Source: Nitrospirota bacterium
GTDB taxonomy: Bacteria; Nitrospirota; UBA9217
DNA length: 64,000 nucleotides
NCBI GenBank assembly: GCA_963754875.1
Contig: CAVWHO010000014.1
Span: forward strand, 64,001-128,000
Reading direction: 5' to 3'
The position numbers are program-made. Within the stretch, counting starts at the first letter, position 1. Every line of letters starts with the position of its first letter. This document shows, one piece after another, positions 21,001 through 27,000 of this stretch.

Positions 21001-24000
21001 AGGACGTGCTCACGGCCTTTGACCGCGCCGCGGAGACCGAGACGGCACCCGGGGCGAAAGAGATCATCGGGCTCCTGAAGGAGAACGCGCGCGTCGCGCG
21101 GGAAGAGCATATTCCTCTCTGCCAGGACACGGGCATTGCAATTTTTTTCGTGGAGCTGGGCCAGGACCTCAGGATCAAGAACGGTTTCATCATCGATGCC
21201 ATCAATGACGGCGTGCGCAAAGGATACAAAGAGGGATATCTCCGGAAGTCCGTCGTTGACCCGCTTACTCGAAAAAATACCGGGGATAATACGCCGGCAA
21301 TCATCTATACTGAGCTTGTGCCCGGCGATAAACTCAAGATCTCGTTCATGCCCAAGGGTGCTGGGAGCGAGAACATGAGCGTGATCCGGATGTTGAGGCC
21401 GACCGAAGGCATCGAAGGCATCAAAAACTTCGTGCTCGAATGCGTACAGAGGGCCGGCGCTAACCCTTGTCCGCCGATGGTCATCGGCGTGGGTATCGGC
21501 GGCGATTTCGAGAAGGCGGCGCTCCTCGCAAAAAAAGCGCTCTTGCGGCCGGTGGGCAGCCCGCATGCCAAGCTGGAACTGGCCTCTCTCGAAGAGACCC
21601 TTCTCAAGGCCGTGAACAAAACCGGCATCGGGCCGGAAGGGCTCGGCGGCAAGGTCACGGCATTGGCCGTTCACGTGGAAAACTTTCCCTGTCATATTGC
21701 GAGCCTGCCGGTGGCGGTCAACATCAATTGCCACGCGGCAAGGCATAAGACGATCATTCTCTAAATTGCGGATTGCGGAATTCGGATTGCGGAAAAAGAC
21801 CGCCGAAACATTTTCTGTGATGATCCAAGGTTCCCGCTCAAGGGCGAAACATGAATGAGCCGATAAGAATAACCCCTCCCATGACTGAAAAAGTCGTTAC
21901 TAAGCTCAAGGCCGGCGACCGCGTTCTGATCACAGGCGTGATCTATACTGCGAGAGACATGGCGCACAAATATATCGTAGACGGCCACAACAAGGGTGAG
22001 AAACCGCCGTTTGATCTGACGGGCCAGATTCTTTACTATACCGGTCCCACTCCTGCGCCTCCGGGAAAACCTATCGGCTCCGCAGGCCCGACCACCAGTT
22101 ACCGTATGGACAAGTACACGCCGACCCTGCTTGAGCTCGGTCTGAAGGGCATGATCGGCAAAGGGCCGCGTGGACAGACAGTAAAAGACGCGATCAAACA
22201 CTACAGGGCGGTCTATTTTGCAGCCATCGGCGGCGCAGGCGCACTCATGTCCAAGGCAATCAGAAAGGCCGAGGTGATTGCCTACCCCGAACTCGGAACC
22301 GAAGCCGTTATGCGGCTCGACGTCGAGGATTTTCCCGCGGTTGTCGTGAACGACGTGTATGGCAGCGATCTCTACCAGATCGGCGTGGAAAAATACGGTG
22401 AGATCGAAGGTGCCGAGGGAGAGACCTGCTGATGCAAAAAAATGAGAAACCGCGAATCCGTGAACGATACTCAATTCTTGAGGAGAAGCAATGACGATTA
22501 AATCAAAAATCAGGACCATTCCAAACTATCCCAAAAAGGGGATCATGTTCCGCGACATCACGACGCTCATCAAGGACCCCGTCGGCTTCCGGCTCGTGAT
22601 CGACACGCTGACCCAGCGATACCTGCATGCGGATTTTAAATTCGATACGATCGTCGGTATCGAGTCGCGCGGTTTCATTATCGGCTCGGTTTTGGCATAT
22701 ACGCTTGGCAAAGGGTTTATCCCCATCCGGAAGAAGGGCAAGCTCCCTGCCGAAGTAGTGTCCCAAGAGTACGAACTCGAGTACGGCACGGACAGGATCG
22801 AAATCCACAAGGATGCTTTGAAAAAAGGCGAGCGGGTCCTGCTTATCGATGACCTCCTCGCGACCGGCGGTACAGCACTGGCCGCTGCCGCACTTGTTGA
22901 AAAGCTCGGTGCAAATGTGGTGGAGATGGCGTTTATCGTCGATCTTCCGGAGGTGGGTGGAAAAAAGAAGCTGAAGGAAAAAGGGTATAAGGTCTTTGCC
23001 CTTACGGAGTTTGAGGGGGAATAGGGTTCCCGAATGAAGCGCGGGATAAAAGAGGCGTTGTCGATCATCTAAAGGGGTGTCCCCACCAATGAAAACATCG
23101 AAAAATATGGCCTTCCACTTTACAGGGAGGCCATATTTTTTTGTGGCGAAGAATTGTGATCGATACATGCAGTGCGTACTCATGTACTTGTTATAGTGGC
23201 CGCTTTATGAAATATAAGGTAAGCTGTAGTTTTTCCCGATGGTGTCTCTTCGACAGTCAAGGATGCGCTTGAGCGTTCTTTAAAAAATCTCGACAAGATA
23301 GTTGTTGTGAAGAATTCAGTTGAAATATTGCGAGTACAGCGCGATAATTTTTCATTGAAAACGTCTTTCCTGAATCACGGCGTACGTCCTGACAGGAGGT
23401 TTCCATGCGCATCCTACTCGCCCTTTTCTTCATCCTGCTTTTTTCGACCTCGGCCGTGGCAGGCGGCATCCAAGCTGGGGGGCAATCGGACCGCCAGGCC
23501 CCCGATAAATCACAGATCCTTCTGAGACAGGCTCGCGCAGTCTTCGGATTGCTGCCGCAGCGGATGCCCGGCAGCGACCGAGATACGCCGGACCTGATCG
23601 CGCTTGGGAAAATGCTGTACTATGAGCCCAACCTTTCTATCAACAGGACTCAGAGCTGTAACTCTTGCCACCCGTTAGATGGAAAGCTGGCGGGCGCGGA
23701 CAACCTCGTCCATTCACCCGGCGCCCTCGGGACTATAGGCACACGGAACGCGCCTACGACGCTCAATGCCGGGTTCCAGATCTCGCAGTTCTGGGACGGC
23801 CGCGCTGACGATCTCGCGGAGCAGTCGAAGGGGCCTATCCTGAATGTGATGGAAATGGGCATGCCCCATATCGATGTCTGTCTCAAGCGGATGAAACAGT
23901 CCGATCGGATCCGGGAGGCCTTCCATGCGGCGTTTCCGGACCAGACAGAGTCTGTCACATATGACAACCTTGCCTTGTCCATCGCGGCATTCGAGCGCAC

Positions 24001-27000
24001 ACTCGTTTCTCGGGGACGTTTTGACCAGTTCCTTGAGGGCGATTCGGGCGCTCTCAGTGAGCGTGAAAAGGAAGGGCTCGGTATTTTCATAAACAAGGGG
24101 TGCATCCGCTGCCACAACGGACCGCTCCTCGGCGGCATGCTGTACCAGCGGGTGGGCATCTACCATGAGTACAAGAATACCTCAGATGTGGGTCGCTTTA
24201 GCGTCACGGGGAACGAGAACGACCGTTTTGTCTTCAAAGTGCCGTCGCTTCGTAATGTCACACTCACCGCGCCGTACTTCCACGACGGGGGGGTCGCGAC
24301 GCTAGCAGAAGCAATAGATGACATGGCCTGGTTCGAACTGGACGAGAAGCTTTCAAGCGCGGAGATCGACTTGATCCTCCGGTTTTTCACCTCGCTTGCC
24401 GACCTCGATCGCACCACCGCTCCCATGAAAAAGTCGAAGGAGACGGTGAGCTGGAACCCTCCGAAGATGGAAACAATCCCTGCGGGTGCGCGGGGTGATC
24501 TAATCAGGTACGGGCATCAGCTCGTGAGCAGGTCGCAGGCGCTTCTTGGCAGCCGGGCAAAATCGCCGGCCATGGTCTATCTGCATAGCACGCTTGCGTG
24601 CGTCAACTGCCACCAGGAGGACGGCACCAAGATATACGGCATTCCCTGGATGGGAGTGACCCTTCGTTACCCGCAGTATAGCTCTCGGTCGAACTTGGAG
24701 GTGACACTTGAGGACCGCGTCAATGACTGCATGGAACGGAGCATGAACGGCCGTGCCCTTCCCAAGGATAGCCATGAGATGCGGGCCATTATCGCATACC
24801 TATCCTGGCTCGGCACTGACCTGCCTGGGGAACTTGCGGGCCTGCTCAAGGTAAGCTTGTCCGTTCCGGACCGCCGTGCGAATCTGGATAAAGGTGCAGG
24901 GATTTACCGCGAATTCTGCCAGGCCTGTCATGGAGCGGATGGGTCAGGCTACCAGGCCCGATCAGCTTTGGACGAGGGAATCTTCGTCACGCCGCCGATT
25001 GCCGGCCCAAACAGCTTCAATACCGGAGCAGGCATGCACCGGCTTCTTCTGGCCGCGGCTTTTGTGAGGGGCAATATGCCGCTCGGCACGCCTTGGGACC
25101 GGCCTGTGCTGACCGATGATGAGGCATACGACGTCGCGGCGTATATCAATTCCCTGGACCGACCCGATATGCCAGGCACAGATAAGGACTGGCTTGATTT
25201 ATCTAAAAAACCCGTAGATTGCCCGTATCCGCCCTATGCCGACGGCTTCAGCCTCGAGCAGCATAGATACGGGCCTTTTAAACAGATAAGCGAAGCAAAG
25301 AAAAAGAAAGGCAAATGATCGGAGACAGTCGATGACCGGTCATCCCCGCCGGTCTGCCGCTGGAACCTATAGTAGACACCAATAACGAATTCAGGTGCCT
25401 TCCTGCAATTCTGAGCCGAACATGCCGCGTTGGGAAAGAATTTAAGGTTTAAAACTGATTGAAAAGCCTGGAGGATGCATTCCTCCAGGCTTTTCAATTT
25501 TTTATCTGTGCAGCCAATAATACTGAATCCGTTTCGTGCTGCTCGCTCACGCATGCCCTGCATTGTGCCCATTTTTTTTGTTATACCCTAAAAATACCCC
25601 ATTTATTTTCTTGACAAATGACCAAGGGGGGAAATATAATGATTTACCATAAGTTTTATTTTAGACATGTAATATTGGTAAGTTATCGTATCAGCCATGC
25701 TCCTACTCCAGATCAGGAATCGTAATCACGAGGATAATGATGTCTCAATTAAGAAAGGGGAAAGAATGAGAATTAAATTTATGCTACTTGCAGTCATGGT
25801 AACAGGAGTTCTAATCGGTTGCAGTTCAACAACGAAATTCACGAGAGACCTGCTTATAACATCAGAGCCGGCAGGGGCAGTAGTTTATATGGACGGTGAC
25901 AAAATTGGGGAGACGCCATTGAAAATCCAGACCTTCTTTACGTGGAACAAGGATGCACCCTATGATTCCTTGTTGCGAAGGGTTATCCAGGTCAAAAAGG
26001 ATGGTTATGTGCCCCAGATCCGCGACCTCTATCCGATTGATATGCCAAATATTACGTTTTTCCTGAGCCCAGATAAAGCTCAAGGCAATGAAAAAGGCGG
26101 GATAAAATGAAGAATATTTTCAGTGGCATCCTCTTCTGTTTTATTTTTTTGGCCGGCTGCGCCGCCACTTCGACCTTCACCGTAAAAACAAACCCCGCGG
26201 GCGCTGATATTTATGTCGATGGGGAACGCATCGGGCAGACGCCCGCAACTATAAAGGTGAAGTTTTCTGAAAATGCGCAAATGGTCACTGAAAAAAAGAT
26301 ACTTGCTGTGAAACTGCGCGGGTACCGGGAAAAGAAGGAAGTAATTTCCCCGGAAGACATAACGCAAAAGACGCTGGAATTCGCGCTTGTGCCTGAGTTG
26401 AATGAAAAATCGGCTGCCCCGGTTGTCAGCAAAGCGACGGCGACAACGACAGCGCAAACATCGCAGGAAACCAAACCAGTGCGGCGTTAGTGAGCTCTGG
26501 GACTACAACACAAAGGCAGGAGATTAACCTATTGAGCGGTTCCAGCAATGAGATCATGACGACGACAGGTCAGGAATCATCCTGCCCTGTCGTCGAGGCA
26601 ACTGCCCCGGTTCAGGGCTGAGAAGTTGAACCGAGTGGCAGGTCTCTTGCGGAAACTTGAGAACCACGTCTGTGGATGTTGGCAATATTGCAGGCAAAAT
26701 TTTTTGGAAATAAATAAAGGAACAGCCTTTTCCCCCTTCTCCGGTAAGCACGGAGTAAGCACGTCGTCCGGTGTTTATTCGACTCAATAGTGTTCTGCTT
26801 CTTTAAAATTGCAGAACATCACTTGGAAAGTTCAATGCCTGTGGAGCAGTATCTATCAGTTTGCAACGAGCATATTACAATGCATGGGAGATAGCTATGG
26901 ACTATAAAGATAGCCATACAGATATAATTATAACTGCCGATTATAGCCGCTCTGCTCTTTGGCTGCTTTTCCTCTTCTCTATTTTTTTTGTATTTGCAGG

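Follow-up and report, generated by a model that had tools for sequence, protein, structure and literature searches.

A cytochrome c peroxidase–thiosulfate dehydrogenase fusion as a probable periplasmic thiosulfate:H2O2 oxidoreductase

Thiosulfate dehydrogenases of the TsdA type are reversible enzymes in which the haem-2 Met ligand is preceded by either Lys or Asn (PMC6879331). The Asn-Met haem 2 of Campylobacter jejuni TsdA belongs to an in vivo tetrathionate reductase (PMC6879331), and this enzyme supports tetrathionate respiration (PMC5146829). Among bacterial cytochrome c peroxidases (CcPs) and their relatives, a Met ligand of the E haem marks the canonical enzymes, while Tyr is found in the MauG types (PMC11892367). 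In classical CcPs, the distal His is displaced upon activation (PMC10094543). The Escherichia coli peroxidase YhjA is active even though its P haem has no distal protein ligand (PMC10301912). Within a 64-kb window, which is the whole stretch of DNA analysed (64,000 nucleotides), we found a CcP and a TsdA joined in a single chain. The features of the locus are as follows:

23320..23348, + strand: sigma-70-like promoter match (10/12) within the 380-nt gap after apt
23394..23399, + strand: AGGAGG ribosome-binding site seen in the sequence, with the ATG 5 nt downstream
23405..25318, + strand: CcP-TsdA tetrahaem fusion gene (P0001), a stop-free frame of 637 aa
23405..23461, + strand: probable Sec signal peptide (approximately residues 1-19), a hydrophobic N terminus judged by eye
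23510..24418, + strand: dihaem cytochrome c peroxidase half (residues 36-338)
24419..24445, + strand: variable core of the linker (residues 339-347)
24446..25306, + strand: TsdA half (residues 348-634) with a long C-terminal extension
24728..24730, + strand: codon of the catalytic Cys442 (Cys96 in Allochromatium vinosum)
25457..25499, + strand: terminator-like 19-bp stem-loop with a T tail

The genes around the fusion in the window are non-redox, and the fusion gene is apparently its own transcription unit. The promoter match is weak because four such sites were found, as compared to 2.2 ± 1.5 in shuffled sequences. Given the export signal read by eye, the protein is probably secreted to the periplasm, and it looks soluble.

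The preliminary description had presented the gene as one uninterrupted chain with four CxxCH motifs, and translation of the frame bears this out, the motifs starting at residues 85, 233, 399, and 505. Repeated searches of the PDB reproduced the assignment of both halves: residues 60-332 match the Nitrosomonas europaea CcP 1IQC (E 3.5e-72), and residues 347-588 match A. vinosum TsdA 4WQC (E 1.1e-42). The 120 best homologues, counting the query itself, include 119 that span 96-100% of residues 30-637 with identities of 52-100%, and 119 that retain all four CxxCH motifs; P0012, which departs from this, is shortened internally. The residues singled out earlier are likewise retained, with Cys442 present in 119/120, Arg445 in 120/120, and both Gln140 and Glu150 of the CcP half in 120/120 homologues. 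Furthermore, contigs from two of four other runs, both belonging to one study, span the CcP-TsdA junction without gaps. Homologue coverage, CxxCH conservation, and these independent contigs rule out a frameshift or an assembly chimera.

The family had been called widespread, which holds for its taxonomic reach but not for its frequency, as it occurs in 2/64 genomes of its own class and, in two further counts, in 6/351 and 9/251 genomes. The named homologues were Desulfobacterota groups and a few Pseudomonadota and Bacteroidota, and no Nitrospirota member was among them. As in the earlier work, our literature search, which did not extend to key subscription papers, returned no description of a CcP-TsdA fusion. 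The sources annotate the named members only as "cytochrome c peroxidase" or "c-type cytochrome", labels that hide the sulfur half.

Both enzymes are complete within the chain, and both are under purifying selection. The pairwise identities of the two halves are 0.71 and 0.68, and their dN/dS values are 0.07-0.22 and 0.08-0.38, as obtained from the 25 of 66 gene pairs that were unsaturated, none of which contains the window's own gene. The depth of the family alignment is about 29 effective sequences.

In the TsdA half, we identified the haem-1 motif (C399-H403), the haem-2 motif (C505-H509), four arginines (Arg428, Arg438, Arg445, and Arg546), and Asn557-Met558, which places Asn before the haem-2 Met. 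H403, R428, R438, C442, R445, H509, R546, and M558 are present in all 119 aligned homologues, and N557 in 118 of them. The R-x3-C-x2-RS motif, which carries the Cys ligand of haem 1, is kept in 127/128 four-haem forward fusions. A proposed marker of catalytic bias, the equivalent of Lys252, proved too weak, being Lys in 17/120 members of this family (family A) as compared to 44/74 free long TsdAs; it is Lys in 5/5 members of family B, described below, and Arg in the query.

The CcP half carries the P-haem motif (C85-H89), Trp130, Gln140, Glu150, the E-haem motif (C233-H237), Met307, and the Ca-site residues Asn115, Thr288, and Pro290; the roles of the Gln, Glu, Trp, and Ca site are taken from PMC10094543. 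Across the 119 aligned homologues, H89, N115, Q140, E150, H237, P290, and M307 are invariant, position 288 is always Thr or Ser, and the bridging W130 is kept in 115. The half scores 162 bits against PF03150 (CCP_MauG; cut-off 25.6) with two CxxCH motifs, at 85 and 233, and the invariant Met307 aligns with the Met of 1IQC, indicating a His/Met E haem. Judged by its residues and domain, the N-terminal half is thus a predicted canonical bacterial CcP. Its assignment to MauG, MbnH, or BthA was rejected on the Met rather than Tyr ligand and on family-model scores of 129.5 bits against a cut-off of 443.85 and 160.7 bits against one of 362.85.

The preliminary description had cautioned that a changed distal-His loop might make this half something other than a peroxidase. 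The fusion indeed lies outside the activatable classical subclass, with Ala107 at the distal-His site in 118/119 homologues and Thr in the remaining one. This change is not peculiar to the fusion: among 59 free-standing CcP relatives, 16 have Ala at this site, only 19 have His, and 40 lack it. The doubt is largely removed by the Ala of these relatives, the displacement of the His in classical enzymes, the activity of YhjA, and the retention of the distal His in the fused family B. The distal His acts as an off-switch rather than a catalyst, and Ala at its site should leave the P haem open without reductive activation. We found no characterised member of the clade with the Gly-Ala loop, and a link of this clade to the studied Leptospira Ccp was dropped, since the genome checked carries seven paralogues. 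The same Ala107, together with low prediction confidence in the loop region (pLDDT <50 at residues 95-104 and 114-125), would fit an N-terminal half that accepts electrons for another oxidant or generates a MauG-like oxidant. The C-terminal half might similarly use another sulfur species such as sulfite, with which C. jejuni TsdA reacts stoichiometrically (PMC9562282). We consider such activities highly improbable, given the canonical Met of the E haem, the scores of the MauG, MbnH, and His-Xaa-Ser models far below their cut-offs, the missing His of so many free-standing relatives, and the invariant Cys and four arginines of the thiosulfate site.

The combination of the two enzymes recurs in the reverse order. 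We found two TsdA-first families, B (5 clusters) and C (7 full-length clusters), and the TsdA Cys motif and the Gln..Glu pair are kept in 29/29 four-haem reverse fusions. Both families derive from CcP and TsdA clades other than those of family A. A single fusion clade was rejected for the CcP halves (p-AU 3e-63; 6.5e-6 under a mixture model) and for the TsdA halves (p-AU 2.4e-5), in sets of 33, 38, and 24 rows hand-picked from larger trees, which rules out one origin for all fusions. These trees indicate that CcP and TsdA have been fused at least three separate times, in two orders and from different clades of both enzymes. At one locus (L147), an unfused tsdA overlaps the start of ccp, and both genes are sisters of family B; this is the only such adjacency seen. 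None of 80 genome loci and none of 80 metagenome loci, many of the latter short, contained tsdA and ccp as separate genes. A metagenome scan with family C returned free TsdAs only, and the model of this family, built from 8 sequences, has a pLDDT of 39.5. Recurrence alone is a weaker argument than it looks, because both domains join other partners readily: CcP relatives are also fused to rhodanese, P460, hemerythrin, kinase, DoxX, NMT1, and nitrilase domains, and TsdA occurs in a three-haem TsdA-cytochrome and a DUF305-TsdA frame.

Such promiscuity would suit a fusion of convenience, in which the enzymes are co-regulated and exported by a common signal yet work apart, each with its own partners, as would two decayed forms, P0123 without the Cys and P0132 without the haem-1 domain. 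We regard this as very unlikely. Besides the three origins in two orders, residues 332-349, which comprise the linker, are 17-21 aa long in 118/120 homologues, and a confident interface is predicted between the two electron-transfer domains. The complex prediction scored 0.85 for the CcP half with the TsdA half, while the best of three controls scored 0.00; the mark used is reached by 116/157 solved and 2/215 mismatched pairs, a calibration that holds only roughly here, and both halves were cut from one chain. The runs share at least 97% of contacts, with a partner pLDDT of at least 93. All 25 interface residues of TsdA fall in the haem-2 domain, and 26/30 of those of CcP in the E-haem domain. 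Thus, the electron-exit domain of TsdA is predicted to dock onto the electron-entry domain of the CcP. Six of ten fusion-specific conserved residues lie within this interface (p 8e-5), a cross-check that is not independent because the same alignment underlies the prediction.

Together, we consider it probable that the fusion is a self-contained, intramolecular thiosulfate:H2O2 oxidoreductase of the periplasm, a "thiosulfate peroxidase". Two thiosulfates would be joined to tetrathionate at Cys442/haem 1, and the two electrons would pass to haem 2 (His509/Met558), cross the interface to the E haem (His237/Met307), and reach the P haem via Trp130, where Gln140 and Glu150 would assist in splitting H2O2 to water (net: 2 S2O3(2-) + H2O2 + 2 H+ -> S4O6(2-) + 2 H2O). 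The thiosulfate/tetrathionate couple lies at +198 mV (PMC5146829), haem 2 of C. jejuni TsdA at +172 mV (PMC6879331), and the E haems of canonical CcPs at about +200 to +450 mV (PMC11892367). Judging from these related enzymes, flow toward the E haem would be downhill. The path from thiosulfate to H2O2 proposed in the preliminary description is supported by the reverse-order fusions, the operon sister, and the predicted haem-domain interface. Both the activity and the way in which the electrons run are inferred.

The tetrathionate reductase role of C. jejuni TsdA raises an opposite reading, a double electron sink in which both halves receive electrons from an external periplasmic cytochrome of low potential, tetrathionate and H2O2 are reduced, and thiosulfate is a product. 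The shared Asn-Met pair would fit, as would the presence of dsrA in 16/20 carriers, which implies abundant low-potential donors, and the lack of a TtrA-like gene in most carriers, which leaves the fusion as a candidate tetrathionate reductase. However, the oxidation-biased TsdBA of Marichromatium purpuratum also has Asn-Met (bias: PMC5146829), and haem 2 of family B reads Lys-Met, as in A. vinosum. In addition, the predicted interface puts the haem-2 motif opposite the E-haem domain, and in the presence of peroxide an E haem of higher potential would draw the electrons out of haem 2. We consider this reading unlikely; it and thiosulfate peroxidation can also both be true at different times.

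The genomic setting of the carriers was also surveyed. The fusion is the sole PF03150 match in 13/20 carriers. Antioxidant genes occur near 6/13 fusion loci, a raw count from neighbourhoods that amount to about three kin groups. The 120 of 154 neighbouring frames scanned at 15 loci revealed no conserved operon of the fusion with sox, ttr, or tsdB genes. A search of 13 upstream regions for FNR or PerR/Fur boxes gave nothing recurrent, and the DsrD profile, like its control, matched nowhere. Obligatory recycling by Ttr was dismissed, as TtrA-like genes show no enrichment (4/18 carriers; 2/10 within a sample with 44/251). The window's own genome has a TtrA-like gene that scores below the family cut-off.

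The likely use of such a thiosulfate peroxidase is peroxide defence in mostly sulfite-reducing bacteria at oxic-anoxic boundaries, with a sulfur compound from outside the cell in place of quinol as the source of electrons. Sulfide can reduce tetrathionate non-enzymatically to thiosulfate and sulfur (10.1101/686469); thiosulfate could therefore be catalytic. More tentatively, thiosulfate peroxidation may be an undescribed activity that was built at least three times and spread horizontally among sulfite reducers, with the net reaction H2S + H2O2 -> S0 + 2 H2O; we see this as possible and still doubtful. If true, a complete sulfur-peroxide redox reaction would take place within one soluble protein, and sulfate reducers and disproportionators would possess a quinol-free peroxide defence. 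The sulfide that sulfate reducers themselves give off would be consumed in removing peroxide, with a hidden tetrathionate flux as the result. Sediments would gain a biological tetrathionate source, and tsdA hits in anaerobes would be accounted for. Three natural geometries, which differ in domain order (two orders), in whether the loop has the His, and in Lys or Asn at haem 2, would together with the unfused operon form a comparative set for the study of inter-domain electron transfer and of TsdA catalytic bias.

Compared to the canonical CcPs (N. europaea 1IQC, Neisseria gonorrhoeae 6FU3, and Geobacter sulfurreducens MacA), the fusion shares the two CxxCH motifs, the His/Met E haem, the Gln/Glu pair, the bridging Trp, and the Ca site, and its predicted structure matches the 6FU3 fold (Z 21.8, rmsd 3.9 Å, 284 residues). 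It differs in the Ala at the distal-His site and in the linker to TsdA, which takes the place of the C-terminal tail; moreover, a built-in dehydrogenase would serve where those enzymes use a small cytochrome or azurin as donor. With TsdA (A. vinosum 4WQ7 and 4V2K; C. jejuni), it shares the His/Cys haem 1, the His/Met haem 2, and the equivalents of Arg82, Arg92, Arg99, and Arg197, with a predicted fold close to 4V2K (Z 27.7, rmsd 2.1 Å, 229 residues), in contrast to which it has Asn for Lys208, a long C-terminal extension, and a covalently attached peroxidase. The TsdBA fusion of M. purpuratum (5LO9) also combines four haems, an N-terminal dihaem partner followed by TsdA, and an Asn-Met haem 2. 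Its TsdB, a class I dihaem carrier, merely carries electrons onward, whereas the N-terminal half of the fusion is a CcP, 5LO9 matching only residues 340-594 by sequence; because this partner is a terminal enzyme, both half-reactions would end in one chain. The trihaem quinol peroxidase YhjA (9QDT; E 6e-54) likewise unites a CcP with a donor-side haem domain and has a P haem without a distal protein ligand (PMC10301912). YhjA takes electrons from quinol through one extra haem in an N-terminal domain and has a membrane anchor, whereas the fusion has four haems and its extra domain is C-terminal and TsdA-type, a catalytic dihaem sulfur enzyme.

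The fusion gene forms a single open frame with CxxCH motifs at residues 85, 233, 399, and 505; thus, the one tetrahaem chain of the preliminary description stands. Its features are:

Window 23405-25318, + strand: CcP-TsdA fusion gene, 637 residues (translation)
Residues 63-214: CCP_MauG domain (Pfam)
Residues 397-468: SoxA/TsdA domain (Pfam)
Residues 495-584: cytochrome c domain (Pfam)

By sequence, the N-terminal half is nearest to a canonical bacterial cytochrome c peroxidase (CcP; 1IQC, E 3.5e-72) and the C-terminal half to the thiosulfate dehydrogenase TsdA of A. vinosum (4WQC, E 1.1e-42), reproducing the PDB matches reported earlier. 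An AlphaFold2 model built from 119 sequences (pLDDT 81.3, pTM 0.83; pLDDT below 50 at loops 95-104 and 114-125) aligned with 4V2K (Z 27.7, rmsd 2.1 Å) and 6FU3 (Z 21.8, rmsd 3.9 Å). An artefact, including the frameshift already dismissed in the preliminary description, was ruled out, because all but one of the 120 best homologues span the full length, and independent contigs from two of four other runs, which belong to one study, read through the CcP-TsdA junction without gaps. The gene has a ribosome-binding site and probably stands alone, as it has a 380-nt gap on its 5' side, a 19-bp terminator-like hairpin 3' of it, and apt and two PEGA proteins as neighbours. The latter are tandem lipoprotein-like genes in a stretch of lower GC (window 25697-26490), preceded by a perfect 12/12 sigma-70 consensus (window 25611-25640).

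We assessed conservation in 119 aligned full-length homologues of this forward fusion (family A). In the CcP half, His89, Asn115, Gln140, Glu150, His237, Pro290, and Met307 were invariant and Trp130 was kept in 115; these residues correspond to the catalytic Gln108/Glu118, bridging Trp98, Ca ligands, and Met280 of Neisseria CcP (excerpt of PMC10094543). In the TsdA half, His403, Arg428, Arg438, Cys442, Arg445, His509, Arg546, and Met558 were invariant, and Asn557 was present in 118. Thus, the catalytic Cys and following Arg of TsdA and the Gln and Glu of CcP are retained throughout this set, in line with the retention in 119 or all of 120 homologues given before. The four arginines, numbered from the alignment, presumably line the substrate pocket. 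The half carries equivalents of A. vinosum Cys96 and Met209, with Asn replacing Lys208, as in C. jejuni TsdA (excerpt of PMC6879331). Within family A, the halves diverge in step (pairwise identity 0.71 for CcP and 0.68 for TsdA), and dN/dS was 0.07-0.22 and 0.08-0.38 for the two halves across those gene pairs whose dS was not saturated (25 of 66), none of which includes the window's own gene. Judged from these sequences, both halves look alive. Shortened or decayed forms also occur: P0132 retains only the haem-2 part of TsdA, P0012 has an internal deletion, and P0123 is the one of 128 four-haem members lacking the Cys motif.

The distal-His loop of classical CcP is changed, as the preliminary description stated, with Ala107 at the His site in 118 of 119 family A homologues; however, the change is not specific to fused forms. 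Of 59 free-standing relatives, 19 have His at the site, 16 Ala, 12 Val, and 12 other residues. In our trees, family A falls inside a supported clade of free-standing peroxidases, most of them of the Gly-Ala type, and we found no characterised Gly-Ala member. Available sections of PMC10094543 and PMC11892367 describe how the distal His of classical CcP occludes the haem until reduction of the E haem, while E. coli YhjA, without a distal protein ligand, requires no activation (excerpt of PMC10301912). By analogy, the P-haem site of the fusion would always be open.

The complex of the two halves was predicted as two chains with four haems, together with three controls. It scored 0.85 versus 0.00 for the best control; runs shared at least 97% of contacts, with partner pLDDT of at least 93. 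For calibration, 116 of 157 solved pairs reach the mark, as do 2 of 215 mismatched ones; these counts apply only roughly here, because we used our own alignment and ligands. On the TsdA side, all 25 interface residues belong to the haem-2 domain; on the CcP side, 26 of 30 belong to the E-haem domain. Ala507 and Cys508 of the haem-2 motif are predicted to contact Ala289, Thr299, and Leu300, at the start of the Met307 helix. Ten fusion-specific residues (at least 90% conserved in family A, below 15% in free relatives) had been listed before the prediction, and six of them map to the interface (p 8e-5), the same alignment serving both, so that the two are not independent. Template likeness may have helped, because the M. 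purpuratum fusion TsdBA, whose alignment to our model starts at residue 218, has a cytochrome docked to its TsdA; the PDB search results included no CcP-TsdA structure.

Because the two relay haem domains face each other, electrons are expected to flow from thiosulfate to H2O2. They would pass from thiosulfate through haem 1 to haem 2 of the TsdA half, cross the facing domains to the E haem, and reach the P haem and H2O2 through Trp130. The H2O2/H2O couple lies near +1.35 V. In excerpts of the literature, TsdA haem 2 carries electrons between active site and partners (PMC9562282) and CcP donors hand electrons to the E haem (PMC10582990); reported potentials are +198 mV for thiosulfate/tetrathionate (PMC5146829), +172 mV for C. 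jejuni haem 2 (PMC6879331), and about +200 to +450 mV for canonical E haems (PMC11892367). The direct electron passage proposed in the preliminary description agrees with this picture, in which the architecture, conservation, and separate origins of the fusion are established, the docking is a prediction, and the flow, its direction, and its role are inferred. In the strongest alternative, the fusion would be an electron sink for both tetrathionate and peroxide, as its Asn-Met haem 2 is of the C. jejuni type; this seems unlikely, since the oxidation-biased TsdBA is also Asn-Met and a reverse-order fusion, family B, has Lys-Met. We regard intramolecular flow from thiosulfate to H2O2 as the probable role.

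The chief new finding is convergence of such fusions. A search of 50% representatives gave two TsdA-first, CcP-second proteins, each heading a family:

Family B: P0127, P0282-P0285; L141:5873-7786 (G447); TsdA (Lys-Met)-CcP (His loop)
Family C: P0130, P0401-P0406; TsdA (Asn-Met)-CcP (Gly-Val loop)

The TsdA halves of both are short. Family B, headed by P0127, has five clusters at 90%, which share 80-87% identity, so that it appears recent; family C, headed by P0130, has seven full-length clusters plus a fragment. The Cys motif and Gln..Glu are kept in all 29 four-haem reverse fusions, many of them near-copies. In trees of either half, the three families stand apart among free-standing proteins. 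Topology tests rejected a single clade of fusions in the CcP halves (p-AU 3e-63, 33 rows; 6.5e-6, mixture model, 24 rows) and in the TsdA halves (2.4e-5, 38 rows), and likewise the joining of B with C (1e-6 and 9e-5). Given the two domain orders, three separate joinings are the simplest reading; since the trees are unrooted and some free-standing proteins nest inside family C, fusions may also have split later. At L147:5886-7851 (G456:C36), a complete tsdA ends in codons that overlap the first in-frame ATG of a following ccp, which has a signal-like segment of its own. This TsdA is sister to family B, and the CcP begins like P0286, which groups with family B. The same genome also has a family A fusion, and a sulfite-oxidase-type molybdoenzyme gene lies ~4 kb upstream on the opposite strand. 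L160:5521-6876 (G107, same genus) encodes a three-haem TsdA with a C-terminal cytochrome c, akin to family C TsdA halves.

The family, earlier termed widespread, is so in taxonomic reach (its Atlas cluster has 176 members, Thermodesulfobacteriota commonest) but not in frequency. Family A is sparse, occurring in 2 of 64 genomes of the window's own class, 6 of 351 in the phylum of genome G301, and 9 of 251 in the order of G302, where one family B fusion was also found. Low dS between records of different orders (0.32 and 0.17; L004 and L005) suggests recent transfer or misbinning.

The window's genome (G000, 90% complete) carries dsrAB, dsrC, dsrMK and O, aa3- and cbb3-type oxidase genes, further CcP genes, and a TtrA-like gene under the cut-off; SoxB had no match there. 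In the dsrAB region (C19:100700-112000, L243), the frame following dsrB, missed by the Pfam model, looks DsrD-like. On C4 lie the TtrA-like molybdoenzyme with NrfD-type and Fe-S subunits (12000-17000, L251) and a MauG/CcP-family gene (43281-43726, L250) that appears frameshifted or misassembled, as its match lies in two frames. Among 20 fusion carriers, dsrA is present in 16, not an unbiased rate because the set came mostly from Desulfobacterota searches; the fusion is the sole PF03150 match in 13. TtrA-like genes were not enriched in carriers. Genes for superoxide dismutase, peroxiredoxin, rubrerythrin, or a rubredoxin-like protein occur in the neighbourhood of 6 of 13 family A loci, a raw count that comprises about three kin groups. 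At L005 and L156, the genes around the fusion include two or three for Fe/Mn superoxide dismutase and one for DJ-1/PfpI; L005 adds genes for a flavoprotein disulfide reductase and a lactamase-rhodanese protein. In a Bacteroidota record (L007:3085-5514), the gene immediately upstream of the fusion is a fused cytochrome c assembly gene, as though the fusion brought its own maturation system along. Some small genomes of family f10 (e.g., G019, G078, and G105) have two to four TsdA-like genes each, some in frames of ~700 residues.

Both partners also occur in other fusions, CcP relatives with many unrelated domains and TsdA with several carriers; thus, repeated CcP-TsdA fusion is suggestive, not proof. 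P0221 and P0162 pair CcP with cytochrome P460, another dehydrogenase with a peroxidase, in which hydroxylamine would presumably be the donor; P0162 adds a phosphate-binding-type domain. P0143, P0204, P0182, P0191, P0245, P0183, P0215, and P0224 join CcP to rhodanese, hemerythrin, protein kinase, nitrilase-type (repeated twice), DoxX, or NMT1 domains. In the literature searched, we found no description of a TsdA-CcP fusion or a "thiosulfate peroxidase", though subscription reviews could list it; nor do the available sections of a sulfur-enzyme review (PMC9774590), a peroxidase network paper (PMC6405878), and studies of oxygen-stressed sulfate reducers (PMC11451228) and Roseobacter (PMC10090131) mention such a fusion. 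TsdBA and YhjA are already known as TsdA and CcP, respectively, fused to a redox partner. The CcP-TsdA fusion recombines known parts to unite two enzymes in one four-haem chain; each part, and fusing to a redox partner, is known, while the joining of two catalysts, three times, is new.
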